Assembly (NCBI GenBank): GCA_964496475.1 | Contig: CAZBZS010000004.1 | Span: 11,775 to 75,774, forward strand | DNA: 64,000 bases | Source: an uncultured Chloroflexota bacterium | GTDB taxonomy: Bacteria; Chloroflexota; UBA11872; VXNJ01 | Direction of reading: 5' to 3' | Part shown: positions 17,517 through 55,787 of the stretch, in pieces | How the letters are laid out: every line of letters begins with the position of its first letter | How positions within the stretch are numbered: the first letter of the stretch is position 1 | Program-made: the position numbers and the translations under genes | Notes under the pieces: generated by a model | What the model saw: only the letters and a program-made list of their open reading frames with translations | Database searches by the model: none | What the model was told of the DNA's origin: nothing

Positions 17517-18011
17517 GTGAAGGCAGTGATCATGGCAGGCGGGGAAGGTTCCCGCTTGAGACCGCTCACCGCGAATCGTCCCAAGCCGATGGTGCTGGTG
17601 GCGAATCTGCCGGCGATGGAGCACATTATTCTGCGTTCTGTGGAAACACGGAATTCGTGAGGTCGTGGCCACGGTCTACTACGAAGCCTGGGTCATACAA
17701 GATTACTGCCGTGACGGTCGGTATTTTGACATGCGGCTGCACTATGCGGTGGAGGATAAACCGCTGGGCACGGCGGAGAGCGTGCGCCTAGCCAGGGAAA
17801 TACTGGATGAGACTTTCTTGGTCGTAAGCGGAGACGCAGTCACCAACTTCGAACTTAACCGGGTGGTCGAATTCCACAGAGCTCGGGATGCGGCCGCGAC
17901 TCTGACGCTGTACCGGGTTGAGAATCCGCTGGAGTACGGCGCTGTGGTGACGGACGACGACGGCCGGCTGCTCCGGTTTCAGGAGACACCGACGTGGGGC
18001 GAAGTGCTGAG
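17517..18011 (+). pseudogene. sugar-1-phosphate nucleotidyltransferase (mannose-1-P guanylyltransferase-like), frameshifted and 3'-truncated
   Basis: The GTG at 17517 gives VKAVIMAGGEGSRLRPLTANRPKPMVLVANLPAMEHIIL, then stops. The sequence continues in another frame as KHGIREVVATVYYEAWVIQDY...LRFQETPTWGEVLSD and breaks off where homologues continue. The frameshift is near 17632-17643. Confidence 0.7.
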
Positions 18012-18315
18012 CGACCGCGCCGCAAACGTCCCCCGGGCAGCAAATCGACGGCGGCGTTGCACTATGAGATCGGAGGCGAAGCCCCCCGAGTGGTGGCCTC
18101 CGGCCACGGTTTTATCGCTGAAAAATATCATCGCGCTGGCAAAAGAGCACGGCCTGAAGATTCATGAGGATCCGGACCTGGCACAGGTTCTGGCGGAGCT
18201 CGACCTTGGGTCGGTGATCCCACTGGAGATCTACCAAGTGGTAGCCGAAGTTCTGGCTTATGTCTACCGGGCGAATGCGTCGGCAGACCGGCTACCCGCC
18301 GCGTCTTCAAGGTAA
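17994..18315 (+). pseudogene. FlhB C-terminal-like (EscU/YscU-type) small protein, frameshifted
   Basis: AGGAGA lies 7 nt before the GTG at 17994. Translation ...STAALHYEIGGEAPRVVASGHGFIAE shifts frame at an A5 run (18121-18125) into NIIALAKEHGLKIHEDPDLAQVLAELDLGSVIPLEIYQVVAEVLAYVY. The length is 322 nt, which is 3n+1. Confidence 0.65.
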
Positions 18316-24380: not shown

Positions 24381-25600
24381 TTATCTGAATGTCGCCATTA
24401 TGCCTCTGTGCGTGGCCAGGAACCTGGCGAAGAGCAGCGCGGCTATTGTGGAAATCGCCGCACCGGTGAGAAAGAGGCCCTAGAAGCCGGAGGCGGAAAT
24501 TATTACGCCGTCGGTCAAAGCCGTCCCGCCCGAACCGAGCGCCCAGGAAAAATTTACATAGCCCGACATAAGCGCCTAGTACTCCAGGCGCACGAGGTCC
24601 ATGGTGTACACGGCGATCGCCGGTCGCATGATAGGGATGAAGGACAGTACGGCAATCAGTCCGACATTTGCGGCGATCGGTTTGGCGATCAGAGCCATCG
24701 GCACCAGGCAGATGGCCACGCCGATCATCTCCACCAGAGTCGCCGGCCCAGGGACAATGCGTTTGGAGAGAATTGGCGAAAGCAGCGCCATGGGACCGGC
24801 CACAAGTTGCGCGATGGCGAAGGTAATTCCGATCTTGACCGTTTCAACGTCCAGCCCAGCATCCATATAAACATTGAAGAATGTCCTTGCGGAACCTTCT
24901 CCAAACTTGCGCAGTACTCTGAGAACGGTCATCACCGTGATTATCATCAGCGGAGCCTTGTTGCCGGGCCCGCGTCGCGTGGCCGGTCTCACGGGTCCGA
25001 TTTCGCGGGTTGCTGCGATCAGGAGGAGCGTCGGGACGACCGCCAGGGCGACCAGGTGCAGTGAGTAGCGGAAGGTGGTGGGATCGTCCGGCGTGAGCCC
25101 CAGCCATCCGGCGGAGAGTCCAGGAAGAAATCCGCCGATAAGACTGGCGGCGAAGCCCGCCGTCTGCAAGGTGGCCGAGGACAGCGCGAAGGCTCAGCTA
25201 CGCAAATCTGGTACAACCGTCCCCATCATGACCGGCTGCATGTTGACGAAGAAAACGCCGGTTCCGGTGAAGGTAATGGCATGGCTGATCATCAGCCAGA
25301 CGGCGCGGGTTACCCCTCGAACGTGGCGCCGAAGGGTATCAGCGTGCTTCCCAGCATGACTGCGCCCAGGCTAATCAACATCAGCCGCCGGTATCCAATC
25401 CGGTGCGACCTCGCGCCGGCTATCGGGGAAGCGATCGCCCAGCAGATCAGCCCAACGCCGTTGGCAAGTCCGATGAAAGCGATGCCAAATCCTAGGCGTA
25501 GAAAGAAGAGATTGAGCAGCACGGCGTAGCTGCCGAATAACTAACCGTTAAGGAGGTCGCCAGTATCCCGCAAGCCGGGTCGGGCGTTGCTCCACCGCCG
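24381..25600 (-). pseudogene. MFS transporter pseudogene (3 in-frame TAG, 1 TGA, at least 1 frameshift)
   Basis: The reverse-strand reading is continuous apart from TAG at 25541-25543, a -1 shift in a G-run near 25313, TGA at 25194-25196, and TAG at 24576-24578 and 24480-24482. The final TAA is at 24381. It contains MFS motif A-like GARSHRIGYRRLM. Confidence 0.7.
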
Positions 25601-25682
25601 CACCTACCGCGGCTAAAATCGTACCGCCGCCGGGAGCACTCTCCGCACCGGCCAAATTGAGCACGTATGAACCGGGGGCGCC

Positions 25683-26849
25683 ATGAGTATTTACGAGGAA
25701 CTGTTTCGTCTAAGGCCAATCATTAACGCGGCCGGGACGATGACGTTACTCGGCGGCTCGCTGATGGCGCCGGAGACCGTAGCGGCCATGGATCGCGCCG
25801 CCGAGGAATGGGTGGACATGCCCGACCTGCTCCGGCTTGCCTGCGAGGGGATTGCCAGCTCGCTCGGGCTCGGCCCCCGACTCGGTGGTGTCCACATAAC
25901 TTCCGGCACGGCCGCCGCCAACATGATCGCCGCCGCCGCGGTGATGACCGGGCACGATCGGACCCGCATGAACGCGCTGCCAGACTCATCCGGTTTCCCA
26001 AACGAGATTCTGATGCAGCCGACGCACGGGGGGAACTGGTCCCGCTCGTACGCCGCCGCGGGAGCCCGTATCGCTATGTCTCCAGTGGAGACCGTTTTCG
26101 ATGGCGACAGCGGCCGGCGCATCCTCGGTGTCACGGAGGAGTCGTTTGAGTCCGGAATCAACGACAACACCTGCGCGATCGGAGCGATTCTGTCTTGGGA
26201 AGGCGCTCACGCCGGCGGGTTGTCTATTGCTCAGCTTGTGATCATCGCCCGGCGTCACGCACTCCCGGTCATTGTGGACGCCGCCGCGCAAGTCCCACCG
26301 ATAACGACGATCAAGGATCTACTGGAGATGGGCGTCGACCTGGTGGCGGTTAGTGGTGGCAAGGCCATCGGCGGTCCCAACGACACGGGACTGCTGGCCG
26401 GCAATCGGATCTACTTGACCCCGGCCATCTTGCAGTCGAGTCCTAACACCGGCGTGGTAGGCCGGGGGTTAAAAGTCAGTAAGGAGCAGATTGTCGGCTT
26501 GTACGTCGCTTTGACGGCGTACGTGGAGAGCGACGCCGACGCACGCCTGGCGGAGGATCAGCGGCGTTGCGACTTCCTCATAGAGCGGCTCGGCGAGACC
26601 GAGCACGTAAGACTTGAGAAGGTTTTTCCCGATGAAACCGGCTTGCCGGTACCGCGAGTGCGGGTTCACCTGCTCGAACCGCTTGGCAAGACCGTTGACG
26701 AGATCACCCACACCCTGTGGGAGGAGACGCCCAGTATCCGTCTGCGCGGCGGCTATCCCGGGGCCGATTTCTTGAATGTCGACGTCAGCACGTTGCGGGA
26801 CGGGGAAGTCGAAATCGTCGCCGAGCGTGTAGGCGCGGCCCTGAGGTAA
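25683..26849 (+). CDS. SelA-like PLP-dependent enzyme (DgaE-type paralogue, not bona fide SelA)
   Basis: 388 aa. PIINAAGTMTLLGGS and the lysine motif VSGGKAIGGPNDTGLLAG. It lacks the SelA N-terminal domain. Confidence 0.75.
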   Translation: MSIYEELFRLRPIINAAGTMTLLGGSLMAPETVAAMDRAAEEWVDMPDLLRLACEGIASSLGLGPRLGGVHITSGTAAANMIAAAAVMTGHDRTRMNALPDSSGFPNEILMQPTHGGNWSRSYAAAGARIAMSPVETVFDGDSGRRILGVTEESFESGINDNTCAIGAILSWEGAHAGGLSIAQLVIIARRHALPVIVDAAAQVPPITTIKDLLEMGVDLVAVSGGKAIGGPNDTGLLAGNRIYLTPAILQSSPNTGVVGRGLKVSKEQIVGLYVALTAYVESDADARLAEDQRRCDFLIERLGETEHVRLEKVFPDETGLPVPRVRVHLLEPLGKTVDEITHTLWEETPSIRLRGGYPGADFLNVDVSTLRDGEVEIVAERVGAALR

Positions 26850-31014: not shown

Positions 31015-31500
31015 CTACATGTCTTCTTGCAGCCCTACGTTGATCTGCAGCTTGCCCAGATCGGTCTTCAACGGCAGCGCCACCGTAGGCATCGTCATCG
31101 TGGATATGCGGGGTCCCTTGCCCTCGATGATCGTAGGGGGCGAAAGATCGTAGTTATGGCCGGCCTCCTTCAGCAATATGGCGGCCTAGCCGGTAATCAT
31201 GTTGCCGAGTTCACCGATCGCACTCCACCCCAGATCGTCAAGTTCGGTTACCGGCTTGCCCATCACGGCTGAGAAGATACCGATGGCCATTTCCATGCGC
31301 ATTGAGTAGAGAACCACCCCTTTCACCTTTCCCGTTACCCCGATCAAAGCGGTCACATCCTGCGGACTGAGACTGTCGGTGGATAGGCTGAGCTGGCCGT
31401 CTCGTTCAACTTCGACGTTGGCTTCCGTGCTCAGCACCTCATTGGCGGCGGTGATGAATGGGTTTATGAGTTGTGCCTTCATATTTGTGGCCAGCTCCAT
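31015..31500 (-). pseudogene. CheX-like chemotaxis phosphatase-fold protein with a single in-frame TAG
   Basis: MELATNMKAQLINPFITAANEVL...GELGNMITG-TAG(31186-31188)-AAILLKEAGHNYDLSPPTIIEGKGTPRISTMTMPTVALPLKTDLGKLQINVGLQEDM. The frame stays open and family-like for 57 codons after the stop. Confidence 0.65.
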
Positions 31501-31602
31501 CGGCGGTTCGGCTCCGTGTCCGTCGGAAGTAGCGAGGCTCTGCGATATGCAACATTCAGTATCCTTTGCGTATCCGTTTGGGACTGTAACCGAGGCCACA
31601 GC

Positions 31603-32289
31603 ATGGTGGCTGCCCACATGAAGTTTGTCGTCTCGCTGAGACTTCCGGTCACTGGAGAACGATTGACCGAAACCGAGAACTATGTAGCCTGGGATCTTGA
31701 GACGTTGCGTTTGAGTTGGGAGGTTCCCGGTCGCTGGACCAACCCGGCTGGCTTCGGCCTGAGCGTTGCCGTGACTCAGGATCGCATGGGCTCCGTGCAG
31801 ACATGGGTCGAAGGCGAGGCCGCCAAACTCATCGAGTATCTCAACCGCTTCGATACGGTTGTGGGATTCAATTCCCGCCGATTCGATAACAAAGTTCTTG
31901 GCGCGTACGGCGATGTCACGGTGCTCGATATGCATACCGTGGACCTGCTGGAAGACATCTCGGCCGCCTGTGGCCGCCCCAACTGCGTATCACTGGATCG
32001 GCTTGCCGAATGCCTGTTTGGCGAGACCAAACTGCTCGACGATCCCACCGATGCCGTTCGCATGTGGCGCACCGGTCGTCCCGAGGATCGCGAGTACGTG
32101 GTCCGTTATTGCCAACAGGATGTCGACCTCACGTTCCGCGCCTACGAGTTCGGCCGCCGCAATGGATTCGTAATCGTCCCGGCTCCAGACACTTTCTGGA
32201 ACGAGCTGCCGCTGGTCGCCCGGGTACCGGTTGAATGGGGCGACGAAATCGTCCGGCCGCTTGTTCAGCCGGAAGCCCTGGACCTTTAG
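31603..32289 (+). CDS. DEDDy-type 3'-5' exonuclease (RNase H-like, PolB-exo-like)
   Basis: Motifs WDLET (ExoI), GFNSRRFDNKVL (ExoII) and YCQQDVDLT (ExoIII). The start is at ATG 31603 or 31618. Confidence 0.7.
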   Translation: MVAAHMKFVVSLRLPVTGERLTETENYVAWDLETLRLSWEVPGRWTNPAGFGLSVAVTQDRMGSVQTWVEGEAAKLIEYLNRFDTVVGFNSRRFDNKVLGAYGDVTVLDMHTVDLLEDISAACGRPNCVSLDRLAECLFGETKLLDDPTDAVRMWRTGRPEDREYVVRYCQQDVDLTFRAYEFGRRNGFVIVPAPDTFWNELPLVARVPVEWGDEIVRPLVQPEALDL

Positions 32290-32347: not shown

Positions 32348-35300
32348 GTGATCGCCGACGACCGCCCCGGGCTCTCCGCCGGTGTCTCCGGCGCCATCTC
32401 ACCCGACCTCCCACCGAACGCCCCTACACCGGTGGCCACAGCGTCGCACCGACGGAGGCGAGGCGCTTTCCTGACCGGCATCACCCTCGCCGCGATCCTC
32501 CTGCTGGCCCTGGTCCTCCGTCTGATCGGGCTGGATTGGGACAGCGGCAAGCATCTTCACCCTGATGAACGCTTTCTCACGATCGTCGAGACCTCGATTC
32601 GCTGGCCGTCATCCCTGGCCGAGTACTTCGACCCCACTCGCTCGCCTCTAAATCCATTCCTCCGGCCCGACATTTCCTTCTTCGTCTACGGGACGTTTCC
32701 GCTGTTCCTGGTGAAGGCGTTGGGCACCCTCACCCTTTACACAACCTACGACACGATCAATCTGGTTGGTCGTGTGGTCTCGGCCGTGTTCGACGCCAGC
32801 ACTATTCTGATTCTGTTTCTGCTCACCCGGCGGCTGTTCGATCGCCGCGTGGCCCTGCTTGCCGCTCTGTTTGGCGCTCTCAGCGTATTGAGCATTCAGC
32901 TATCCCATTTCTTCGCGGTCGACACGTTTTCCACGTTCTTCGTCACCGCCGCCCTTTACTTCGCCCTTCGCGTGTATCGGGAGCAACGCTGGTATCTGTT
33001 CGCCGGTCTCGGGCTCGTCACCGGCCTGGCGCTTGCCAGCAAGCTCAGCAGCGCCCTGATAGTCCCTTTTATCGTCGCCTACCTGATTGCCCGGTACCTC
33101 CGCGATCGTCGCATCGTCGCGCGCCCGCCCGGGTTGCCGCTTTTGGTCGCCGGGTTGCTGTTGGCGGTCGTAACGGCCGCTTTTATTTTCCGAATAACCC
33201 AGCCCTACGCTTTTGCCGGCGGCAATCTGCTGGATTTTCGCCTGGCTCGCGATTTCTTGGACGCCGTAAATCAGCAGCGCCAAATCCAAGAGGGCACTTA
33301 CGATTGGCCGCCCGGCATCCAATGGGCGGGCACCACCCCGTATCTGTTCCCGCTCAAGAACATCGTCCTCTGGGGACTCGGCCCGGCCCTGGGTTTTGCC
33401 GCACTGGCGGGTCTCGTATTCGCCTCCTGGCGGCTGACCGTTCGGCGTGACTGGCCGCTTTTCATTCCGGTCGTCTGGACCCTGTTGAACTTTGCTTACT
33501 TCGGCGCACTGGTTCTCAAGACCATGCGCTACTACCAGCCCATGTACCCGATGCTCGCGATGCTCGCCGCCTGGGGCCTTTACTACGCTTGGGACCGGCG
33601 ATCGAGATTGCGCCGGCTTCCGGTCCCCGCCTCGACGCTACCACTGGCGTTGTTCGCCATCGTGATCGTGGGGACCGCCCTGTGGGCGACAGCGTTTGTC
33701 AGCATCTACACTCGCCCGGTAACCCGTATCGCCGCCAGCGAATGGATTCACACGTCCATTCCGGCGGGCACGACGATCGCCGTGGAGCACTGGGACGACA
33801 CCCTGCCGCTGGGCCTGCCGGGATTCGGCGGCGCCGAACGCTACAACATGTTGCAGCTACCCCTGTACGACGACGACACCACGGCCAAAAGGGAGCGGGT
33901 GCTCGACATTATCAATCAGACGGAATTCATCGTGCTCAGCAGCAATCGCCTCAGCGGCAGCATCCCCCGCATGCCGGGTCGCTATCCGATGACCATCCGC
34001 TACTACGACGCCCTCTTCTCCGGCGAGCTTGGCTTTGATGAGGTAGCCGACTTCACCAGCTACCCCTCGCTGCTTGGAATTGAGATTTCCGACGATTCCG
34101 CCGAGGAGGCTTTCACTGTTTACGATCATCCGCGGGTGCGCATCTTTCAGAAGGCGGCCGGATTCGACGCAAACACGGTCCGCGCCATTCTGGCCGGCAT
34201 TGACCTCACCGCCGCCGCGCGGATCTTGCCCCGCGACGCCGGAACCCCCGATCTTCTCCTGAGCACGGCCGACAGGGAGCGGGTACAATCCACCGGCTCG
34301 CTTCCCAGGCAGCTTTTCGGCGAGTCGATTTTCGCCCGATACCCGGCGGTCGCCTGGTTCCTGCTGGTGCTGGTGGCCGGTCTCGCCTCGTGGCCGCTGG
34401 TAAGCCTTGCGCTTTCCCGCCTGCCGGATGCCGGTTACTTCGCCGCCCGGCCGTTTGGCTTGCTCCTGCTTGTTTATCCGGCCTGGATGCTGGGGAGCCA
34501 GCGCTGGGTGCCGTTCGGCCGAAGTTCGTTGCTGGCCGGACTGGCGCTCCTGCTGGCCACCGGCATCGCCGTGGGATGGTTCCGGCGACACCGGTTGCTC
34601 CAGACCATCCGGTCGGCCTGGCCGGCTCTGGTCGTGGGCGAGCTTGTCTTCCTGGCCGCCTTCCTCTTCCTGTTAGTGATTCGCATGGCCAATCCCGACC
34701 TCTGGCACACCGTCTTTGGCGGCGAAAAACCCATGGATTTTGCTCATCTCAATGCCATGCTGCGCACGGATTATTTCCCGCCTTACGACCCCTGGTGGGC
34801 CGGCGGTTACATCAATTACTATTATTTCGGCCAGCTGTTCACCGCCGGTCCGTCGCTTGCGTTAGGCATCCAGCCAGCAGTGGCCTACAACCTGGGTCTG
34901 CCGGCGATGTTCGCCGTCACCGCGGCTGCGATCTTTTCGTTCGGCTTCAACATCTGGCGCGGTGTCGGCCGAAAACGCTTCGCGGCCATCGGCGTGGGGC
35001 TGCTGGCCGTCTTCCTCACGCTGTTCCTTGGCAATCTTGATTCTCTGGTACAGCTATTTCAGATCACCGCGCGCCGCGCGCCCGGGGCCGCGACGGGACT
35101 ATCCGTTCTTTCGCAGGTTCCCAGTACGCTTCTCGGCGGAACCTTCAGCGCCAATTTCGACTTCTGGCGCAGCACGCGGGTCATCGAGCAGACCGTCAAC
35201 GAATTTCCCTACTTCACCTTTCTCTACGGTGATCTCCATCCCCATCTGCTCGATCTCGGCTGGACCATCGTGACTCTGGTCGCGGTCGTTGCGCTGGTGC

Positions 35301-36928
35301 TGGCCCGCCCGGTTCCCGGCCTCTTTGCAGCCGGAGCGACGCTTCAATCGCGCGCGCTGGCGTTCGTCCGCGGCGACCACTTGCCGCCGCTGGTGCTGAT
35401 CGCCGTCACGCTCGGTGTCCATCGAGTTACGAACCCATGGGACTTTCCCACCTACCTGCTGCTCACCGTCCTGGCGCTGGTCTATTCGTTGTGGCGTGGA
35501 CATGGGCGATTTGGTTGGAGCTTCCTGGTCGTCCCGGTACTGGCTGCCGGAGGGCTGATGGCGGCCAGCCTGGCGCTCTTCACTCCGTTTCATACCAATT
35601 TCGGCGTCTTCTTCAGCGGCGTGGTTCCGACCCCCGAGACAACTCCACTGAGCTTGTATTTGCTGTTCTTCGGGGTCTTTTTCCTGATATTGCTGAGCTT
35701 CGCCGGGCTCAGTTTCGTTCCTCGACGGGTTCGCGGGTGGTATTCGACCGGCTTCAAAGTCGGCCTCGCCAGCCCGGTCAGGCTAGTGAGATACGTTTCT
35801 CTGGCCGCAGCGCTCGGGCGCTGGCGACGTCTGCCCGCTATCTGGGTATTGATGTTTCCGGCTGTAGCGTTGCTTGTGCTGCTCGCTGCCGCCGCCACCA
35901 GCCAGTCCTGGTCCACTCCGGCGGCGCAGACCGGGTTGATCGTAATCGGCCTGGGGATTCCGATTCTCTGGATAATCGGGGCTGGACGCGTTCCGCCGGT
36001 CCCCTGGCCTCTTCTCATTCTTGGGATTTCTCTATTTCTCCTGGTGATCGCCGACTACCCGTGGTCCACACGCTTATTTCAGCCACTGGCCGTCATCCTG
36101 GCGGTTGCGGCTGCCCTGAAGAATCGCCGTGACCCGATCCGCTTCATCCCGATGGCTCTGCTGGTCGGGGCGCTGTTGTTGACCGCCCTCCCCGAGTGGT
36201 ACGCGCTGGAGGGCGACATCGGCCGGCTGAACACTGTCTTCAAGTCCTACTATCAGGCGTGGGTGATGCTGGCTCTGGCCAGCGCTCTGGTGTTGCCACA
36301 ACTGATTCCCGCCATCCTGCGCCGCTTTGGGGGTTGGTTCAGCGTCGGCGGCTCGTTTTTGCTGGCGACGATCGCCATCTCCATTTTTGGGTCTGCTCTT
36401 TATCCGATCGGGGCGACCCCGGTGAAAATCGACCTCCGCATCGATCACACCGAACCGACTCTGGACGGCACGGCCTACATGGTCGAAGGGGTGATCAACG
36501 ATCGCGGGCGCGAGATCGAGCTCCGCTACGACAAGCAGGCCATCGACTGGATTCTGTCCAACGTGGAAGGCCGCCCGACAATCCTGGAGGCCACGGTGGA
36601 TATTTATCATTGGGGTTCGCGAATCTCCATAAACACCGGCCTGCCCACTGTGCTCGGTTGGGACTGGCACGAAAAACAGCAGCGCTGGCCCTATCGCCAC
36701 GAGGTGGATGCGCGCCGCCGGGATGTCGAGCTTGCCTACAGCACGACGAACGTGACCGAGCTCCTGAATGTGCTCGATCGTTACGGCGTCGATCTCATCT
36801 ACATCGGTGAACTGGAGCGTGCCTACTATCCGGCCAATGGGCTGGCAAAATTTGATGATCTGACCGATCGCGGCCTGGACGTCATCTATGAGAACCGGGA
36901 TGTCCGTATCTACCGGGTATCGTCTTGA
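32348..36928 (+). CDS. 1526-aa polytopic membrane protein: N-terminal PMT_2/ArnT-like GT-C module fused to a DUF2298 (Chlor_Arch_YYY) module
   Basis: HLHPDERFLTIVE (DE loop after TM1). Many TM segments. GGEKPMDFAHLNAMLRTDYFPPYDPWWAGGYINYYYFGQ. The C-terminal soluble domain is ...TGLPTVLGWDWHEKQQRW...YIGELERAYY. Confidence 0.85.
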   Translation: MIADDRPGLSAGVSGAISPDLPPNAPTPVATASHRRRRGAFLTGITLAAILLLALVLRLIGLDWDSGKHLHPDERFLTIVETSIRWPSSLAEYFDPTRSPLNPFLRPDISFFVYGTFPLFLVKALGTLTLYTTYDTINLVGRVVSAVFDASTILILFLLTRRLFDRRVALLAALFGALSVLSIQLSHFFAVDTFSTFFVTAALYFALRVYREQRWYLFAGLGLVTGLALASKLSSALIVPFIVAYLIARYLRDRRIVARPPGLPLLVAGLLLAVVTAAFIFRITQPYAFAGGNLLDFRLARDFLDAVNQQRQIQEGTYDWPPGIQWAGTTPYLFPLKNIVLWGLGPALGFAALAGLVFASWRLTVRRDWPLFIPVVWTLLNFAYFGALVLKTMRYYQPMYPMLAMLAAWGLYYAWDRRSRLRRLPVPASTLPLALFAIVIVGTALWATAFVSIYTRPVTRIAASEWIHTSIPAGTTIAVEHWDDTLPLGLPGFGGAERYNMLQLPLYDDDTTAKRERVLDIINQTEFIVLSSNRLSGSIPRMPGRYPMTIRYYDALFSGELGFDEVADFTSYPSLLGIEISDDSAEEAFTVYDHPRVRIFQKAAGFDANTVRAILAGIDLTAAARILPRDAGTPDLLLSTADRERVQSTGSLPRQLFGESIFARYPAVAWFLLVLVAGLASWPLVSLALSRLPDAGYFAARPFGLLLLVYPAWMLGSQRWVPFGRSSLLAGLALLLATGIAVGWFRRHRLLQTIRSAWPALVVGELVFLAAFLFLLVIRMANPDLWHTVFGGEKPMDFAHLNAMLRTDYFPPYDPWWAGGYINYYYFGQLFTAGPSLALGIQPAVAYNLGLPAMFAVTAAAIFSFGFNIWRGVGRKRFAAIGVGLLAVFLTLFLGNLDSLVQLFQITARRAPGAATGLSVLSQVPSTLLGGTFSANFDFWRSTRVIEQTVNEFPYFTFLYGDLHPHLLDLGWTIVTLVAVVALVLARPVPGLFAAGATLQSRALAFVRGDHLPPLVLIAVTLGVHRVTNPWDFPTYLLLTVLALVYSLWRGHGRFGWSFLVVPVLAAGGLMAASLALFTPFHTNFGVFFSGVVPTPETTPLSLYLLFFGVFFLILLSFAGLSFVPRRVRGWYSTGFKVGLASPVRLVRYVSLAAALGRWRRLPAIWVLMFPAVALLVLLAAAATSQSWSTPAAQTGLIVIGLGIPILWIIGAGRVPPVPWPLLILGISLFLLVIADYPWSTRLFQPLAVILAVAAALKNRRDPIRFIPMALLVGALLLTALPEWYALEGDIGRLNTVFKSYYQAWVMLALASALVLPQLIPAILRRFGGWFSVGGSFLLATIAISIFGSALYPIGATPVKIDLRIDHTEPTLDGTAYMVEGVINDRGREIELRYDKQAIDWILSNVEGRPTILEATVDIYHWGSRISINTGLPTVLGWDWHEKQQRWPYRHEVDARRRDVELAYSTTNVTELLNVLDRYGVDLIYIGELERAYYPANGLAKFDDLTDRGLDVIYENRDVRIYRVSS

Positions 36929-37022
36929 CGGGACGTAAACTGACCGCCGGCCTGCGCTCGCCGCTTTTGACGATCTCGCAGCCGACCGAAAGGATCCAGC
37001 AATAAGCGACTCGCTTCTCTGG

Positions 37023-39209
37023 GTGCTGATCCTGCTCGTCATGACGCTCGTCGGGTTGCCGCTCTCTCACATCCTCTTCCCACGCCTGCCTTCCCGCGGC
37101 TATCTGCTGGCCAAACCGCTGGGTCTGCTGGCGTTTAGCTTCGTGAGCTGGCTGCTGTTGTTCACGGGAGCGTTTGCCAACGGACGCTCTTATCAAATGA
37201 TCTTGCTATTCGTCCTGGTGCTAGCTGCCTTGGTCGCGTACCGTAGCCTTCCCGATCTGGCGGAGGAGCTCCGCGCCCGCCAATGGCAAATCGTCATCGG
37301 CGAAGTCGTGTTTGCGGTCGCGTTTCTGTTGTTCGCGCTTTACCGGGCCCGCAATCCCGACATCGCCGGCACGGAGAAACCGATGGAATTCGCGATGTTG
37401 AGTTCGGTCATGCGCAGCGCCACTTTCCCGCCCATCGATCCTTGGCTCTCAGGTCTTCCGGTCAACTACTACTACTTCGGGTATTCCGTCGGCGGGGCGC
37501 TGGCGAATCTGGCCGGAACCGCGGCGGCCATCGCCTTCAACCTCTTGCTGATAACCGTCTTCGCACTGACCGCACTCGTAACTTTCTCGCTCGGCCACGA
37601 CCTGCTGGCACTGGCCCGCGAGAGGTCAACCGCGATCGAGCGCAACGTCACGGGCGGTCTGGCGGCCGTCTTCGTGCTGCTCGCCGGAAACCTGGGGGGC
37701 TACCGCTTTGTCATCGAACCCGCCTTCCGTAACGAAGACTTCTGGCGCGGAATCGGCTGGAACGCAAGTCGTGTCCTCCAACGCAACAATGAATCCGGGG
37801 AACTTCAGGATTACACGATCAACGAATTTCCGGCTTTTTCGTTTGTGCTTGGCGATCTGCACCCCCACGTAATAGCGCTGCCGTTCACCATGCTGGCGGT
37901 CGCCATCGCTCTAAGCTGGTTGCTTGTCTGGGGTGACAGGGATTCTTCCTTCCGGGAGACGATCCCACTGGCCGTGGTCACGGCGCTGCTGCTCGGCGCT
38001 CTGAATGTCACCAATCCCTGGGACTTTCCCAGCTTCACCGTACTCATCGCCCTAGCCGGGTTGACCGGGCTGTATTTTTTTGGTGACCGCCGGCGCTGGA
38101 CCGATCTCGTTATTCATCTCGCCGCCGCCGTAGGGCTCTCGCTGCTGCTGTACCTTCCCTACCATCTGCACTTCGAACCGTTCATAAGTCAGCTGGGACT
38201 GGTCTCTGTCAGGTCGGCGGTCGGCCCGTTCGTCATCATCTTCGGCTTCTGGATCGTGGCGGCCGTCCTTTTGCTCGCTCACCGGCTGGGGCGCGATTCG
38301 CTCTCCGGCCGCTGGATGGTGCTGGCCGTGGGCGCCGTTGTCGTGGTGCTCTGGTTGAGCAATGTGCCGGCCGGCGTCCTGCTTCTGTGCGCGCTGCTGG
38401 CCGCGGCGATGGCATACCTTGGCGTCCGCCAGTCCGATGGCCAGCCCCGCCGCGCCGCCCTGCCGCTGGTCTTTTTCACCGGATTTGGGCTGGCGGCCGT
38501 GCCGGAACTCGTCTTCGTAGACGACTTCTTCGGGCCGCCCTACGAGCGGATGAACACGGTTTTTAAGATTTACTTCCAGGCCTGGCCGCTGCTGGCGGTG
38601 GCCTCGGCGCCGGCGATATACCTGTTCTTGCGCCGGGTCTGGAGTCGTTTGGGCGAGACCGGCGCGCTCGCCACGGGCGCCACCGCAGTCGTGGCCATCC
38701 TGTTTTTCGTAGCCATCATCTACCCGTTTGCCGCGGGCCGCGCCCGGATCGGGGGCAGTCAGCCCGCCACGCTTGACGGCTTGGCCTTCGCCCGTCGCAG
38801 CTGGCCCGCCGAGGTCCGGGCCGCCGAATGGCTCCGCGCCGAGGCCCCAGCCGGCTCCGTGGTCCTGGAAGCTGCCGGCAACGCCTACACCGACTACGCC
38901 CGCGTCTCCGCCTGGACCGGCATACCGACGGTGATCGGCTGGGACCAGCACGAGGCGCTCTGGCGGGGGGGGCGCCAGGAAGTAGATCCACGGGTGATTG
39001 ATGTCGACGCCATTTACCAAGGCCGGGGCCGCGGCGACACTCTGGATCTGCTCCACAAATACGATGTCCGTTACGTCTTCGTTGGCCGCCTCGAACGCGA
39101 AAAATACGGACTTGACGTCGCCACTCGTTTCACCGGATATCCGCTGCTGTTTGAAATCCGGGGCGAAGTGTCAATTTTCGGGGTGCCGCTCAGCACCCCC
39201 GGAGGTTAG
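37023..39209 (+). CDS. DUF2298 (Chlor_Arch_YYY, TIGR03662-like) membrane protein
   Basis: 728 aa. GTEKPMEFAMLSSVMRSATFPPIDPWLSGLPVNYYYFGY. The C-terminal domain TGIPTVIGWDQHEALWRG...FVGRLEREKY parallels the upstream paralogue. Confidence 0.85.
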   Translation: MLILLVMTLVGLPLSHILFPRLPSRGYLLAKPLGLLAFSFVSWLLLFTGAFANGRSYQMILLFVLVLAALVAYRSLPDLAEELRARQWQIVIGEVVFAVAFLLFALYRARNPDIAGTEKPMEFAMLSSVMRSATFPPIDPWLSGLPVNYYYFGYSVGGALANLAGTAAAIAFNLLLITVFALTALVTFSLGHDLLALARERSTAIERNVTGGLAAVFVLLAGNLGGYRFVIEPAFRNEDFWRGIGWNASRVLQRNNESGELQDYTINEFPAFSFVLGDLHPHVIALPFTMLAVAIALSWLLVWGDRDSSFRETIPLAVVTALLLGALNVTNPWDFPSFTVLIALAGLTGLYFFGDRRRWTDLVIHLAAAVGLSLLLYLPYHLHFEPFISQLGLVSVRSAVGPFVIIFGFWIVAAVLLLAHRLGRDSLSGRWMVLAVGAVVVVLWLSNVPAGVLLLCALLAAAMAYLGVRQSDGQPRRAALPLVFFTGFGLAAVPELVFVDDFFGPPYERMNTVFKIYFQAWPLLAVASAPAIYLFLRRVWSRLGETGALATGATAVVAILFFVAIIYPFAAGRARIGGSQPATLDGLAFARRSWPAEVRAAEWLRAEAPAGSVVLEAAGNAYTDYARVSAWTGIPTVIGWDQHEALWRGGRQEVDPRVIDVDAIYQGRGRGDTLDLLHKYDVRYVFVGRLEREKYGLDVATRFTGYPLLFEIRGEVSIFGVPLSTPGG

Positions 39210-39212
39210 GCA

Positions 39213-40961
39213 GTGGGTGCTGTTGATCCCGTCCTGAAATGGAGTTTCTGGCGGCAGATCGTAAGGCTCCCGCTGCCGGGCGGACGGGGGCTGGAACTGG
39301 CCCGCTGGGAGATGCTGCTATACGCCGCCATCATTGTGGCGGTCGTGGCCACCCGGTTCCTGGCACTCGATGTCCGCGCCTACCACCATGACGAAAGCAT
39401 CCACGCCAAGACCTCCTGGGACATCATGAACGGTGTGGCCTACCGCTACAACCCCGTGTATCACGGTCCTTTCCAGTACTTCGCGACCGCCGCCGTATTC
39501 AAAGTCTTCCGCGCCGGTGACTTTGCCGGCCGCATCATGCCCGCCATCTTCGGCGCGGCCACCATCTTCGCCATTCCCTGGCTTTACCGGAATCACCTGG
39601 GCCGGCACGGCACCTGGATCGTCATGGTCGCCCTGACCCTGTCCACCGGGTTCATGTACTTCTCGCGCTTCGCCCGTAACGATATCTACGTCGCGTTCTG
39701 GACCGTGCTCTTGTTCGGCGCGTTACTCCGTTACATCGATCGGCCGCAGCGGCGCTGGGTGGTTCTGGCCGCGGGCTCGCTCGGGCTCTTCTTCGTCACC
39801 AAGGAGAACGCGTACATCGTCGGATTTATCTTCGTCAGCTTCGTCGTATTGCTGGCGCTGTGGACGTTCCGCGGTCGACGCGGCCGGGATGCCGCCGACG
39901 AGACGGTCGGTCGGTTTCGAACCGCGTTCCAGGTGCTGGGACGGGATGTTGATGGGTTGGCCTACGCGCTTTTGCTGTTCCTGGGCGTGATTTTCATATT
40001 CATGACCTCTTTCTTCACTTACCTGCCCGGATTTCGAGAGGGCATCATCACATCCTTTACCGTCTGGGCGGACATCAACGAATCGCAGAGGGTGAATCAG
40101 CCATGGTTCTTCTACTTTATATTCACCGGCGTTTACGAGGCTTTCGCCGCGCTCCTGGGTCTGGCCGGCATCGTGCAGGCCATCCGCCGGCCGAAGCTAT
40201 TGCCGGTGCTCTTGGTGTACTGGACGGTGCTGAGCTTCTTCATCTACTCGATCGCCGGCGAAAAGGCGGCCTGGCTCTCGCTGCATCCCACCCTGCCGCT
40301 TACGCTGCTGGCCTCGTGGTATGTGGGGGATAGATTCGAGCGAATCCGGTCCTTCGGCGGACGGGCTGCGGTGGCTCTCATCGCCATCGTCCTACTCGGC
40401 TGGACCGCCGGAAATTCCGTAAGGGTAACCTTCGTTTACCGAGATGTACCCAACGATTTTGTCATCTACACGCAGACCTCCCGGGACGTTCTGGAGACCC
40501 TGGAGATTATCGAGGAGGCCGGCCGCCGCACCGGCGAGGGATCCGGCATCCCGATCTTCCTGCATGCCGAGACCCACTGGCCTTATGCCTGGTATCTGCG
40601 CGACTACACCGCCATCTACTACGCCCCGAACATGACCGAGCTTCCGACGCAGAAGATCGTGCTAGCCGGCGACGCTAGCGCTCGCGAGTTCGGCTATCTC
40701 TTCGTCGATCATGTAGGTATCGAAATGAAACTCCGCGAGTGGTTTCCCGAGCAGGTTTACAGGGATTGGGATTGGAGTTCTCTGGGCAGCGCCCTCCAGA
40801 AGGACAATCTTTTGAAACTCTATCGCTTCTATTTCTTCAGGGAGCCGCCCGAGAGCCTGGGATCGTCTAATTACCTCCTTTACATCCACAAGGATCTCTT
40901 GCAGGCCGGACCGCTGGGGCGGTTTACCCTGCTGCCGCCGTCGGCGCCCGCCGGCCCCTGA
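39213..40961 (+). CDS. TIGR03663 / Agl23-like GT-C family membrane protein
   Basis: 582 aa. RAYHHDESIHAKTSW...YNPVYHGPFQYF carries the invariant DE and HGP of the family. GGAGG lies 7 nt before the GTG, and the gap to the upstream stop is 3 nt. Confidence 0.85.
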   Translation: MGAVDPVLKWSFWRQIVRLPLPGGRGLELARWEMLLYAAIIVAVVATRFLALDVRAYHHDESIHAKTSWDIMNGVAYRYNPVYHGPFQYFATAAVFKVFRAGDFAGRIMPAIFGAATIFAIPWLYRNHLGRHGTWIVMVALTLSTGFMYFSRFARNDIYVAFWTVLLFGALLRYIDRPQRRWVVLAAGSLGLFFVTKENAYIVGFIFVSFVVLLALWTFRGRRGRDAADETVGRFRTAFQVLGRDVDGLAYALLLFLGVIFIFMTSFFTYLPGFREGIITSFTVWADINESQRVNQPWFFYFIFTGVYEAFAALLGLAGIVQAIRRPKLLPVLLVYWTVLSFFIYSIAGEKAAWLSLHPTLPLTLLASWYVGDRFERIRSFGGRAAVALIAIVLLGWTAGNSVRVTFVYRDVPNDFVIYTQTSRDVLETLEIIEEAGRRTGEGSGIPIFLHAETHWPYAWYLRDYTAIYYAPNMTELPTQKIVLAGDASAREFGYLFVDHVGIEMKLREWFPEQVYRDWDWSSLGSALQKDNLLKLYRFYFFREPPESLGSSNYLLYIHKDLLQAGPLGRFTLLPPSAPAGP

Positions 40962-53454: not shown

Positions 53455-54438
53455 TTGGCGGGGACCGAAAGAGATAGCAAATCTGTGCCCGATGACTCCC
53501 TGGCCGCTCTCCGCGCCCGCCAGACGAATCCAATCTACCGCTGGGGAATTCGCCCCTTGCCGATAGATCCCGAGGCTCACCTCGGCAGCGGTCGCCTGGT
53601 CGAGATCGATGCCGGCCGGGTGCATATCGACACCATTGGCGAGGGTCCGGATATTGTCGCCCTGCCTGGCTTTGGGGGCACCTCGCGCACCTGCCGGGCG
53701 CTCGCCGAGCGGTTGCGGGGAAGTTATCGCTTGCACCTGCTTGATTTCCTCGGTTACGGCCTCTCGGACAAGCCGACGGGCATCGACCACTCTCGTATCG
53801 GGCAGGCGCACCAAATCCAGCAGGCCATGGACGCCCTCGGACTGAAACAATGCATTCTGCTCTCCAATTCCGCCAGCGCCGCCCCCTCCCTATACGCGCA
53901 GTTCCGCACCCCGCGGCGAATAACGGCCAACATCATGGTGGCTCCGTTCGTCGCCCCGACCCGGTCGGCCCGAATTAGCGTCCGTTTTTTGCGCCTGCCT
54001 TTCGCCAGGCCTGCACTGCGCCTCCTACTTGGATTCCGCCCCATGGTGGGGCTGGCCAATTACATGGGTCGGAGCGACCGTTCTGGAATCACGCCCGAGA
54101 TCGTGGACGAGCAGTACCTTCCTTACGGCACGCCCGGCATCTGGGAGGCCATTGCCAGCGTGGGCAGGCACCTCAACCCCGACGGCCTCAATGGCATCGT
54201 GCAGATGAACACCATTCCCACGCTGGTCGTGTGGGCTTCCGAAGACCGCGTCGGCGATCTGGCCGGCACCCGCCGTCTGCTGGGTCAGATTCCCGGCATG
54301 CGCTTCGAAATCTTCGACCCCTGCGGTCACGTGATCCAGGAAGAACGACCTGACGACCTGGCCCGCGTCATCCGTGATTTTTTGGCCAACTCCGGCATCA
54401 CCTGCATCCCACCCTGCGAAAAGGTCTACCCCCCGTAA
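53455..54438 (+). CDS. alpha/beta-fold hydrolase
   Basis: 327 aa. LPGFGGTS oxyanion region, an atypical nucleophile elbow LLSNSASA, and a C-terminal GHVIQEERPD. Confidence 0.72.
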   Translation: MAGTERDSKSVPDDSLAALRARQTNPIYRWGIRPLPIDPEAHLGSGRLVEIDAGRVHIDTIGEGPDIVALPGFGGTSRTCRALAERLRGSYRLHLLDFLGYGLSDKPTGIDHSRIGQAHQIQQAMDALGLKQCILLSNSASAAPSLYAQFRTPRRITANIMVAPFVAPTRSARISVRFLRLPFARPALRLLLGFRPMVGLANYMGRSDRSGITPEIVDEQYLPYGTPGIWEAIASVGRHLNPDGLNGIVQMNTIPTLVVWASEDRVGDLAGTRRLLGQIPGMRFEIFDPCGHVIQEERPDDLARVIRDFLANSGITCIPPCEKVYPP

Positions 54439-55787
54439 ATCGTAGTCTCCGGGAAATACGCCGACCAGCCGTACCACTCCGACACGAACGAGGTAGCGAA
54501 TGGCAGCTGCGTGCCGGCGTGCGGGCCGGTGAGAGCCCGGCCCTGAAGATCCCACTCGGCTCCGGTCTGGTCGGTGATGATTCCGTCCTCCACTGAGAAA
54601 TTCAGGACCTCGCCCTCTGCCACCGCCACGAACGCCAGCGCGTACAGCTCATCCGGGTCGGAGAAGATCGCGAGCCGATCTCCCCCCAACTCGTCGGTAA
54701 TGACCATCGGCCCCGTTCCCATTTCGCCCAGCACGTAAGCCCGCTGCTCGCCGTAGTGGTTCACCCCGAGGACCAATTCATTCTCCGGCAGGCGATCGTC
54801 CCAATTCAGCAGCGTCTGCTGAAACTTCGGGCCCAACCCCGCCCTACCGACCTCGAACCTCCCTTGTGGGTAGTCAGCCGCGAAATCCGGATACCAGTCC
54901 AGTACCAGCGTGTTGGGGCTGGCGGTACGCCAATCTCCCCAGGTGGTGTGGTACGCCGGCAAGATCTCCAGCTTCACCCCCTGCCCGGCCAGCGGCCCCT
55001 GCAGGATCGAGCCGTCGTAGTGCGTCCACACGGAGCCCGTCTGCCGGTCCCTCATGACAAACAGGCCATTGTAGAGACCGGCCACGTCGAAGGTGTAAAC
55101 GGTCCCTTCCCAGGAGGGGTTGAACTCAACCCCGGACGAACAGACGCCTCAGTAGGTCACCAGGTAGGGCTCGCCGCCTACGGTGAGATTGGCGATGTGG
55201 TGGTACGCCATCTGTCGGACTGGAAAAGCGCGGGTTTCGCCATTCTTCGCCACCAGCCCCATCACAATCTCCTCGTCATCCAGCCAGGTGGCTTCCGCGG
55301 CCGGGATCATCACCGGCTCATCGAGAGGAATGAATCTGCTGCCCGGACCCACCGCCAGGCCAGCCGGATCGAAGCTGTCCGCCGCGGTCGGGCTCCCCGG
55401 TCGAGGGGTCGCGGTTGGGACCGGCGCTACCGTCGCCTCCGGCTTCGGAGCGCGGCTGCTGACTTCCTCAGCCGGCTCCGGCGCGGCCGGCGCCGATTTT
55501 CCGGTGGCGACCGATGCGGCAGCCGCCAGGGGTGTGGCTGACGACGTGGTTTTCACCGCCTCTGGCGGAGTCTGAGCGACGCTACCACGCATCGCCGCGA
55601 TCCGCGACGGTGCTCCCTGAACCTGCGAATCGATAACCCCGACCGTCGGCGTTCCAACGACGCCTCCAGATTCCGTCCCCGGGCCCTCCCCACCCGCGCA
55701 CGCGGAGGTCACACCGATCAGAATTGCCAGGCCCGCCGTTATCGTCCTTCGTGGAATTTGTTGTTGATCTGACATCGCCTTCATCAC
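54426..55787 (-). CDS. DUF3179-family lipoprotein; single ORF interrupted only by TGA at 55149-55151 (candidate Sec codon or nonsense)
   Basis: ORFs 55149-55787 and 54426-55085 are in the same frame. The joined reading is ...LTVGGEPYLVTY-TGA-GVCSSGVEFNPSWEGTVYTFDVAGLYNGLFVMRDRQTGSVW... Lipobox LIGVTSAC. Confidence 0.7.
55116..55133 (-). promoter_or_regulatory. SECIS-like hairpin 15 nt downstream of the in-frame TGA
   Basis: The mRNA reads UGA-GGCGUCUGUUCGUCC-GGGGUUG-AGUU-CAACCCC. That is a 7-bp G/C-rich stem and a 4-nt loop containing GU, about 22 nt after the UGA. Confidence 0.3.

Follow-up and report, generated by a model that had tools for sequence, protein, structure and literature searches.

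DUF3179 proteins (PF11376; UxxC/T) are listed as a bacterial selenoprotein family by Zhang et al. 2022 (PMC9312934) and Zhang et al. 2026 (PMC13188914). Both reviews credit the family to Zhang & Gladyshev 2007 (PMC1976440), with deltaproteobacterial worm symbionts as its credited source; the name DUF3179 is absent from the text of PMC1976440 and the family is therefore not mapped here to one of the 'OS_HP' families of that study. In the literature examined there is no demonstration of selenium incorporation into a DUF3179 protein. The bacterial SECIS (bSECIS) model describes a stem of 4–16 bp and a loop of 3–9 nt with a G in the first two loop positions, a distance of 16–37 nt from UGA to loop and a minimum free energy of -7.5 kcal/mol or lower (PMC13188914). 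Selenocysteine (Sec) users occur in Chloroflexi, Acidobacteria and Actinobacteria (PMC1794560, PMC5389517), and Chloroflexi have unusual 8/4 tRNA-Sec structures as described by Mukai et al. (PMC5389517). The locus analysed here had been put forward, in an earlier note made from the sequence alone, as a candidate new selenoprotein. It is not new in that sense, as DUF3179 with UxxC/T is already catalogued (PMC9312934, PMC13188914).

The gene lies on the minus strand (54426–55787) of a 64-kb stretch of DNA from a Chloroflexota bacterium, hereafter the window, and contains one in-frame TGA (55151–55149). We consider it highly likely that this TGA encodes selenocysteine and that the locus is one gene, neither two genes nor a pseudogene. 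The ORF list splits it into two ORFs in the same frame (55149–55787, 212 aa; 54426–55085, 219 aa), and from the TGA to the GTG of the second ORF (55085) there are 63 nt, equal to 21 sense codons. Translation bears out this arrangement, and also the junction as the earlier note had read it, GGEPYLVTY*GVCSSGVEF with U at the asterisk. Read through the TGA, the peptide runs EPYLVTY-U-GVCSSGVEFNPSWEGTVYTFDVAGLYNGLFVMR, of which residues 214–234 are absent from both called ORFs. The 454 codons comprise one internal stop and the true, terminal stop TAG (54428–54426), with no second lesion in 1,362 nt, giving a protein of 453 residues with Sec at position 213. Candidate start codons are GTG at 55787 and ATG at 55784 or 55775. 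The Sec/Cys pair forms a U-G-V-C motif (TGA GGC GTC TGT, 55140–55151), whose second Cys, C216, is invariant in our homologue alignment. The gene is monocistronic, flanked by a divergent YfhO-like gene on one side and a convergent alpha/beta hydrolase gene on the other, and neither the window nor the related loci show a consistent neighbouring partner that might hint at function.

Comparison with relatives supports the proposal that the TGA stands in place of the first Cys in a CxxC motif to give UxxC. Protein searches were repeated with the DUF3179 domain alone, since the full-length query was swamped by its low-complexity linker and gave 11 matches. At the TGA column, 12 full-length homologues have Cys, the first of a CxxC. 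The motif VTYCPLC, which the earlier note had given for this region, is borne out by distant homologues (ISYCPLC, VTWCPLC, VSFCPLC and VTFCPLC), while closer ones read VTYCSVC or VTYCVVC. The genome scan used peptide patterns from Sec forms and is biased to the Sec clade, but the TGA column lies in neither pattern. Of 80 related loci in genomes of Chloroflexota, Acidimicrobiales and Acidobacteriota, 79 have TGA at this exact column, with TAA or TAG never seen. TGA occupies the column in all of loci L001–L019, which span 42–76% identity across Chloroflexota, Acidimicrobiales and Acidobacteria, and in a further locus of 89% identity. In the Acidobacteriota clade it is found in 62 of 62 motif-bearing loci, none with TAA or TAG. 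Two of the related loci are syntenic Chloroflexota orthologues (L003 and L004), sharing the order YfhO-like, DUF3179, alpha/beta hydrolase, S6, SSB, S18, SurA-like and Obg, and both keep the TGA; the syntenic MAGs are JASLPR01 and CAYYTN01. In two MAGs the TGA-containing gene is present as a pair of paralogues, L009 with L016 in one and L007 with L017 in the other.

Downstream of the TGA the transcript can form the hairpin GGGGUUG-AGUU-CAACCCC (55133–55116, minus strand), with a 7-bp stem, an AGUU loop and a spacer of 15 nt after the UGA. The loop lies 22 nt from the UGA and has G at its second position, and the energy is -11.0 kcal/mol. These values fall within every published bSECIS limit (PMC13188914), in agreement with the earlier proposal of a loop about 22 nt downstream and within SECIS range. 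Pairing is kept in 140 of 140 cells over 20 Sec forms, eight of these cells with double changes (seven U-A to C-G and one G-C to A-U), which none of 500 shuffles reached. The same helix is predicted by RNAalifold, and within the stem a synonymous Val change (GTT/GTC) tracks an Asn/Asp change (AAC/GAC). The stem codons are minor ones, with GGG, GTT and CCC making up 21%, 12% and 28% of their respective families in the window. If the hairpin were incidental, Cys relatives might be expected to carry the same downstream sequence. Instead it is eroded in the seven Cys forms, which keep only 2–6 of the seven pairs, and the three closest have energies of -5.0, -1.5 and -5.5 kcal/mol. The conserved peptide G-V-x-F-[ND]-P partly dictates the stem, so some pairing is expected without selection at the RNA level, and one Cys form keeps six of the seven pairs. 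Folded as a single sequence, the 60 nt after the UGA are no better than shuffles (z = -0.79; 40 of 200 as good). What places the hairpin beyond chance is its cross-species conservation and covariation, not the lone fold. Rfam returned no SECIS or other credible family, either at the gathering threshold over the whole window or at E <= 10 over 54900–55300.

Readthrough of the UGA need not in principle yield Sec. The codon might be decoded as Cys by a selC*-type tRNA(Cys) opal suppressor, of the kind described in some anaerobic bacteria (PMC5389517), or as Trp or Gly if TGA were reassigned, and the lack of visible Sec machinery in the window could be taken to favour such decoding. Neither tblastn with E. 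coli SelA, SelB and SelD nor Pfam detected selA, selB or selD in the window and 1.29 Mb of related loci, and ARAGORN scans of the window and 60 related loci gave no tRNA-Sec. Little follows from this absence of machinery, as the window covers just 64 kb of the genome, and an 8/4 tRNA-Sec may escape ARAGORN. An alternative genetic code was rejected: of the 26 confident genes in the window, 6 end in TGA, which indicates the standard code and not reassignment. Homologues align Cys, not Trp or Gly, at the column, and the SECIS-type hairpin is maintained specifically in TGA forms. The selC* type was reported in Firmicutes, Thermodesulfobacteria, Nitrospirae and Proteobacteria, not Chloroflexi (PMC5389517). 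We judge decoding as a residue other than Sec to be very unlikely.

A pseudogene arising by simple nonsense mutation of TGC or TGT to TGA would need a single base change in a Cys codon, and the window does hold other broken genes. The earlier note had described many nonsense mutations here; this is correct in that at least three genes are truly disrupted: an in-frame TAG interrupts a CheX-like gene, an MFS gene has both a frameshift and an in-frame TGA, and an NTP-transferase gene is frameshifted. Several of the 'split' genes, however, are simply neighbours that share a frame, rpsF-ssb-rpsR for example. Against a lesion in the DUF3179 gene, the same TGA column is shared by syntenic orthologues and about 80 other genomes of three phyla, and is never TAA or TAG. 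Identities of 42–89% among the related loci exclude the possibility that they are copies of one contaminating sequence. In seven comparisons dN/dS is 0.17–0.39 after the TGA and 0.08–0.45 before it. The downstream values imply that this part is translated and under purifying selection. The 1,362 nt contain no second lesion, and the hairpin is conserved and covaries. A pseudogene is accordingly highly improbable, and conservation effectively refutes it.

Two separate genes, one for a lipoprotein of 212 aa that stops at the TGA and one for a protein of 219 aa that begins at GTG 55085, would match public annotations, which consistently give two ORFs; a truncated product (P0036) is even named 'DUF3179 domain-containing protein' by NCBI. 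Yet a single Pfam domain spans the gap, conservation is high across the 21 codons from TGA to GTG (VCSSGVGF[ND]P), which stay in continuous frame in all relatives, and the full-length Cys homologues are single proteins. In an AF2 model of one of these the strands flanking CxxC belong to one beta-hairpin, and the C-terminal fragment would have no signal peptide. Separate genes are thus most improbable, and the public split is better read as an annotation error shared by most relatives: 118 of 130 retrieved homologue clusters in public protein data begin just after the Sec codon, a pattern typical of selenoprotein genes that have gone unrecognised. An error of sequencing or assembly as the source of the TGA is scarcely credible, for although such assembly errors could account for the frameshifts seen elsewhere in the window, the identical codon occurs in independent assemblies from many studies.

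The N-terminus of the predicted protein supports the earlier assignment as a lipoprotein. A signal peptide with a lipobox (MKAMSDQQQIPRRTITAGLAILIGVTSA followed by C30) is read from the sequence at 55698–55787, with the Cys codon TGC at 55700–55698. By pattern check, the lipobox region ends AGLAILIGVTSA-C30, with an atypical Thr at -3, and a hydrophobic stretch ending [AGST][AGST]C is found in 14 orthologues, such that the lipobox Cys is conserved by pattern. Between the lipid anchor and the domain lies a low-complexity linker rich in Ala, Pro, Thr and Ser (residues 31–154; 55326–55697), which is outside the Pfam match and differs in length and sequence among orthologues. The DUF3179 domain itself (residues 155–448; 54444–55325) spans the TGA junction and matches PF11376 with E = 7.8e-56 and 190.1 bits (cut-off 27) over profile positions 7–292 of 292. 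In addition to C216, residues D247, W254, D330, W438 and P446 are invariant in the alignment (window numbering), and the first Cys of the CxxC is replaced by Sec. A His-His pair (residues 196–197; 55197–55202) within the motif MAYHHIAN lies 16 residues before Sec. Its first His is conserved and its second is His or Glu, and the pair is present in the Acidobacteriota clade too. His-His may act as a metal ligand.

Structural evidence comes from the AF2 model (pLDDT 86) of a Cys homologue, P0031, which is 48% identical to the window protein. The model is all-beta around the motif, with CxxC at the end of strand 122–129 and in the turn before strand 134–139. A thioredoxin fold, with CxxC at a helix N-terminus, was considered and rejected on this model, where CxxC sits on a beta-hairpin turn; no thioredoxin-fold match is among the best 50 Foldseek matches listed. 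The earlier description of a classic UxxC redox motif consequently stands for the UxxC arrangement, but the redox label is unproven for a beta-hairpin turn in an all-beta domain. Among the Foldseek matches listed, the only recurring ones are Rieske-type or NirD-like, including 3c0d (NirD-like), 5bok, 2qpz and carbazole dioxygenase ferredoxins. These are weak (probability 0.9–1.0, target TM-score 0.45–0.6, E 0.02–0.1, none with E <= 0.001). Comparison of the family profile with the E. coli Rieske ferredoxin HcaC by hhalign gave a probability of 0.1%, so the Rieske resemblance remains a fold-level lead. A sequence-profile search of the PDB returned nothing relevant, and NCBIfam has no model for the DUF3179 family.

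These features lead to a molecular model for the locus. In the preferred reading, a Sec residue at UxxC specified with the help of a bacterial SECIS-like hairpin, the UGA at 55151–55149 would be recoded as selenocysteine. This core of the earlier note held in all tests run, among them TGA conservation, purifying selection and covariation. By analogy with the established bacterial pathway, the hairpin at 55133–55116 most likely acts as a bacterial SECIS element and most likely recruits SelB-GTP-Sec-tRNA(Sec) to the ribosome with the UGA in the A site. The predicted product is a 453-residue lipoprotein with a signal peptide, lipobox Cys30, a Pro/Ala-rich tether and an extracytoplasmic DUF3179 domain bearing U213-G-V-C216. 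Less confidently, the reactive centre may be the Sec/Cys pair, placed on an exposed beta-hairpin turn beside the conserved His-His. The pair might undergo selenenylsulfide cycling within an extracytoplasmic thiol/selenol redox relay, or might bind a soft metal ion. A more specific possibility is that DUF3179 is an extracytoplasmic metalloprotein of Rieske-like beta-fold and not an oxidoreductase, its metal site composed of His-His (196–197) and U213-x-x-C216, with a selenolate ligand. We regard this as rather unlikely. If true, the cell surface would bear a new type of Sec-ligated metal centre, which would be common across marine Chloroflexota, Acidimicrobiia and soil Acidobacteriota but would be hidden almost completely by split gene calls in public databases.

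Our results correct an annotation on sound grounds but do not constitute a discovery, given that the DUF3179 UxxC family is already catalogued. ORFs 54426–55085 and 55149–55787 should be joined and annotated as one gene that contains Sec. The source Chloroflexota bacterium is very probably Sec-decoding, which predicts selA, selB, selC and selD elsewhere in its genome. Functional work may be guided by the conserved lipoprotein anchor and by the modelled placement of Sec/Cys on a beta-hairpin turn, in a fold that resembles Rieske proteins and not thioredoxin.

Set against known systems, the gene shares features with several. Like the thioredoxin-fold UxxC/CxxU selenoproteins (DsbA-like, thiol-disulfide isomerase-like and AhpC/Prx-like), it has U-x-x-C spacing and an extracytoplasmic location, and a thiol-disulfide association is likewise seen among its relatives. 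One Sec form, L001, is fused to a TlpA/AhpC-type redoxin domain (WCPNC), and another, L093, adjoins a DsbA-like gene. Unlike thioredoxin-fold selenoproteins, the domain in the P0031 model has an all-beta structure that places CxxC on a beta-hairpin turn. Rieske proteins have the layout strand, CxH, 15–17 residues and CxxH, which the DUF3179 order of strand, HH, 16 residues and UxxC parallels. In contrast to Rieske [2Fe-2S] proteins, the CxH...CxxH ligands are absent from DUF3179, which has HH...UxxC instead.

The hairpin resembles bacterial SECIS elements of the E. coli fdhF type and the bSECISearch model in being a stem-loop within the coding sequence immediately 3' of the UGA. It differs from the fdhF SECIS in its minimal form, with a 4-nt loop on a stem of 7 bp and without a bulged U, and shows no sequence resemblance to it. 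The sister Acidobacteriota clade has a different hairpin, CACAC(C/G)-GGUCU-(G/U)GUGUG, also 15 nt from the UGA. The closest likeness is to the catalogued DUF3179 selenoproteins, with which the window protein shares the same Pfam family, Sec as the first residue of C-x-x-C, one Sec per protein, the existence of Cys homologues and a SECIS-like hairpin just downstream of the UGA. The window copy is a lipoprotein whose tether is long and of low complexity, and has U-G-V-C where most relatives have U-V-V-C. It comes from a Chloroflexota lineage, unlike the credited source of the family, and nothing essential differs.

The DUF3179 gene occupies 54426-55787 on the minus strand and comprises an upstream ORF (55149-55787, 212 aa) and a downstream ORF (54426-55085, 219 aa) in a common frame. 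On translation its 454 codons contain one internal stop, the TGA at 55151-55149, and end with TAG. The TGA is followed by 21 sense codons up to a GTG, at which gene-finding programs begin the second ORF, and the junction peptide reads GGEPYLVTY*GVCSSGVEF. With Cys put in place of the internal stop, the Pfam DUF3179 profile (PF11376) matches across the junction at residues 155-448 (E = 7.8e-56; score 190 bits, cut-off 27). The earlier note's description of two same-frame minus-strand ORFs with a single TGA between them, and its assignment of the product to DUF3179, were correct. The gene stands alone, with a divergent YfhO-like gene on one side and a convergent alpha/beta hydrolase gene on the other.

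The hairpin GGGGTTG-AGTT-CAACCCC (55133-55116, minus strand) begins 15 nt past the TGA. Folded as a single sequence, the 60 nt after the UGA do no better than shuffled sequence (z = -0.79). The comparative test used an ungapped alignment of 20 Sec forms, DUF3179 genes with an in-frame TGA at the first Cys of the CxxC motif. Here a 7-bp helix formed by columns 19-25 and 30-36 shows pairing in all of its 140 cells (140 of 140), with U-A replaced by C-G in seven sequences, G-C by A-U in one and G-U pairs in several. None of 500 column shuffles matched the observed pairing or covariation, sliding the 3' arm out of register destroyed the pairing, and RNAalifold independently gave the identical helix. 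In the chief compensatory change synonymous Val codons (GTT/GTC) track Asn/Asp (AAC/GAC) on the other side of the loop, a link not expected from selection on the protein. The stem Gly is GGG in 20/20 sequences and the stem Pro CCC in 19/20, while neighbouring Ser codons vary freely; in window genes GGG, GTT and CCC account for only 21%, 12% and 28% of their own codon families. Hairpin energies among the 20 Sec forms range from -8.4 to -12.8 kcal/mol and the loops are AGUU, GGUU or GUUU. The bSECIS consensus describes a loop of 3-9 nt with G in its first two nucleotides, a stem of 4-16 bp, a UGA-to-loop distance of 16-37 nt and an MFE <= -7.5 kcal/mol (PMC13188914 section 5). The window hairpin, whose position the earlier note had placed within the range of bacterial SECIS elements, lies within every one of these limits (4-nt loop with G at position 2, 7 bp, 22 nt, -11.0 kcal/mol).

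Seven Cys-containing homologues served as controls. The four distant ones keep 2-5 of the 7 same-register pairs, and the three closest (P0031, P0051 and P0081; 41-47% identical to the search query; peptide VVCSS[AG]V[GA]F[DN]P) retain 5, 5 and 6, with energies of -5.0, -1.5 and -5.5 kcal/mol. The intact hairpin therefore accompanies the TGA and is degraded in these Cys relatives, which answers the refuting condition that the earlier note had set for an incidental hairpin. That the UGA is instead read through as Cys, Trp or Gly is disfavoured by the presence of this SECIS hairpin and by the use of TGA as a normal stop in 6 of the 26 confident window genes (the others end in TAG, 16, or TAA, 4; genome 62% G+C).

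Selenocysteine at this position is also consistent with the column in relatives. Full-length homologues from the first search carry Cys there (VTYCSVC, ISYCPLC and others), and the two closest matches (P0001 and P0008) start exactly one residue past it; on their contigs a same-frame upstream ORF ends in TGA at the column. Locus L001 reads VTY-TGA-VVCSSG and L002 VTF-TGA-VVCSSG. A scan of one genome per bacterial species with two peptide patterns that omit the Sec column returned 80 loci, a sample skewed towards the Sec clade because the patterns were taken from Sec forms. TGA occupies the column in 17 of 17 closer loci (L003-L019; 42-76% identity), which belong to Chloroflexota (Anaerolineae and Dehalococcoidia among them), Acidimicrobiales, Microthrix and Acidobacteria. 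A distant Acidobacteriota sister clade (L020-L082; Pyrinomonadaceae, Blastocatellia, Bryobacter; 30-35% identity) reads ATY-stop-TLCHTG in 62 of 63 loci, and all 62 stops are TGA (TAA 0, TAG 0); the sole exception, L023, has lost Cys and Sec and has no stop there. This clade carries a different hairpin at a near-identical place, 15 nt from the UGA (CACAC(C/G)-GGUCU or GGAAU-(G/U)GUGUG; mean energy -9.0 kcal/mol; loop opening with GG), a SECIS-like hairpin of its own. Among these homologues the column is thus Cys or TGA, L023 excepted, in agreement with the earlier view that the TGA replaces the first Cys of a CxxC motif: Cys in full-length homologues, TGA in Sec forms.

L003 and L004 show synteny to the window (YfhO-like, DUF3179, alpha/beta hydrolase, S6, SSB, S18, SurA-like, Obg and PIG-L), their proteins being 57-86% identical, so the TGA has been kept in true orthologues across substantial divergence. 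Two Chloroflexota MAGs each hold two diverged, TGA-bearing DUF3179 paralogues (L009 and L016 in B84T3L11; L007 and L017 in KW1-S05_108). At L090 the C-terminal ORF product is 89% identical, and the TGA GGC and 60 nt downstream match those of the window. Seven pairwise comparisons gave dN/dS of 0.17-0.39 over 232-240 codons past the TGA, with similar values upstream, and the downstream half is therefore translated. The occurrence of TGA at one column in ~80 genomes, together with this purifying selection, excludes both a nonsense mutation and an assembly error as its origin. The earlier caution that the window holds other broken genes was justified for CheX-like, MFS and NTP-transferase genes, but the DUF3179 TGA is different in nature.

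The CheX/CheC-like gene (31015-31660, minus strand) has an in-frame TAG (31188-31186) inside the conserved GELGNMITG*AAILL; its frame runs 56 codons past the TAG, and the match to the Pfam CheX profile covers positions 1-55 of 94 and is then cut. The TAG has the look of a real nonsense lesion, or else of a sequencing error. The MFS transporter gene (24576-25690, minus strand) appears broken: it is frameshifted, its N-terminal part ends at TAA 25310-25312, the rest lies in another frame with an in-frame TGA (25196-25194; PDLRS*AFALSS), and an ORF remains only for the final 197 aa (Pfam MFS_1 profile positions 127-323). The nucleotidyl-transferase gene (17517-18315, plus strand) is frameshifted near 17640, with VKAVIMAGGEGSRLRPLT in frame 2 and the remainder in frame 0. 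It is an odd hybrid, since the 50 residues at its C-terminal end match the corresponding end of the FlhB/YscU export family (PF01312 profile positions 288-335). At 32348-40961 (plus strand) three very large membrane-protein genes in a row (1526, 728 and 582 aa) with DUF2298 and PMT_2 (glycosyltransferase family 39-like) domains, followed by an LPG_synthase_TM gene, probably represent a cell-envelope glycosylation cluster.

A second protein search with the DUF3179 domain alone found 130 homologue clusters, 118 of which are N-terminally truncated and start 1 to ~45 residues past the Sec column. At least 31 truncated clusters open with M-x-C-S-S-G, and only 12 of the 130 are full length with CxxC. 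The gene is split in public calls almost everywhere (P0012-P0130; L090, L092, L093), and the NCBI record of one C-terminal fragment (P0036) carries the name 'DUF3179 domain-containing protein'. The presence of two separate genes is excluded by the single DUF3179 domain across the junction and the conservation of the 21 in-frame codons between TGA and GTG; the beta-hairpin predicted to form across the junction points the same way.

Sec users occur in Chloroflexi, Acidobacteria and Actinobacteria, and in Chloroflexi and Actinobacteria tRNA-Sec with an unusual 8/4 structure is reported (PMC1794560 Table 2; PMC5389517). The 64-kb window has no tRNA genes or Rfam matches, and Pfam scans of essentially all plausible window ORFs showed ordinary housekeeping genes (including GroEL/ES, Obg, RsgA, LytB, ThyX and S6-SSB-S18) and revealed no SelA, SelB or SelD. 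Nor did tblastn with the E. coli proteins in the window and 1.29 Mb of related loci, a result that is uninformative for a 64-kb genome sample. The sequence comparisons show that the UGA is translated, corresponds to Cys in homologues and has a SECIS-type hairpin selectively maintained beside it. The selenocysteine reading of the TGA is supported, and Sec decoding of UGA 213 is very probable. By analogy with the established bacterial pathway, SelB-GTP-Sec-tRNA(Sec) would bind the hairpin and deliver Sec at UGA 213.

The N-terminal stretch MKAMSDQQQIPRRTITAGLAILIGVTSA-C30 resembles a lipoprotein signal peptide, and in 14 orthologues a comparable hydrophobic segment likewise closes with a lipobox Cys, as expected of the lipoprotein first proposed. 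A 124-residue Ala/Pro/Thr-rich tether leads to the DUF3179 domain. The signal peptide includes a twin arginine (IPRRTITAG; residues 12-16; 55740-55760, minus strand), a weak, non-conserved motif also found in L003, L007, L015 and L018 and absent from L005 and L008; export through Tat would suit a protein that bears a cofactor. More tentatively, the exported, lipid-anchored domain may have U213/C216 as its reactive centre, forming either a selenenylsulfide redox couple or, together with His196/197, a soft-metal site, with the redox and metal-binding roles roughly evenly balanced. An AhpC-TSA/redoxin (TlpA-like) domain with WCPNC is fused in front of the Sec-form DUF3179 in L001 (279-2228), which hints that the U/C pair is part of a thiol-disulfide relay; together with a DsbA-like gene adjoining the Sec form in L093 it hints at a thiol-redox context. 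A copper storage protein gene (Csp, PF03860; L083 2084-2545) lies ~450 nt upstream of the Cys form P0002, a single instance. No neighbour gene is conserved overall across DUF3179 loci.

No solved structure for a DUF3179 protein was detectable by sequence, and there is no NCBIfam model for DUF3179. A structure was modelled for the full-length Cys homologue P0031, 48% identical to the window protein in their alignment (mean pLDDT 86, pTM 0.79). In this model the DUF3179 domain is almost wholly beta, and its two Cys residues, 129 and 132, are placed at the end of strand 122-129 and in the tight turn ahead of strand 134-139. The CxxC is thus predicted in a knuckle-like position rather than at the helix N-terminus of a thioredoxin fold. 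A Foldseek search of the model against the PDB found nothing at E <= 0.001; among the matches listed, the only recurring ones were to Rieske-type ferredoxins and to NirD-like small subunits, at E 0.02-0.1 with a probability of 0.9-1.0 and a target TM-score of 0.45-0.6. Profile comparison of the family with E. coli HcaC was not significant. The Rieske motif is spaced CxH-x15-17-CxxH, which the conserved His-His of DUF3179, 16 residues before Sec, followed by U-x-x-C, parallels. The parallel is a lead towards a possible Rieske-like relationship.

DUF3179 already figures among the catalogued prokaryotic selenoprotein families, with the motif UxxC/T (PMC9312934, PMC13188914). The 2022 review gives MBW1804167.1 as its example (PMC9312934) and the 2026 review, which records one Sec per protein, MDJ0986319.1 (PMC13188914); both credit the Olavius symbionts study of Zhang & Gladyshev 2007 (PMC1976440). 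The earlier note's proposal of a new selenoprotein therefore finds no support. Beyond the catalogue entry, it may be modestly useful that Chloroflexota, Acidimicrobiia and Acidobacteriota carry the Sec form very widely, that most public gene calls split it, and that the Sec/Cys pair is predicted to lie outside a thioredoxin fold. The window gene belongs to this family, shares the Sec position of the catalogued DUF3179 selenoproteins and has a standard bSECIS, which makes it one more member of a selenoprotein family already known.
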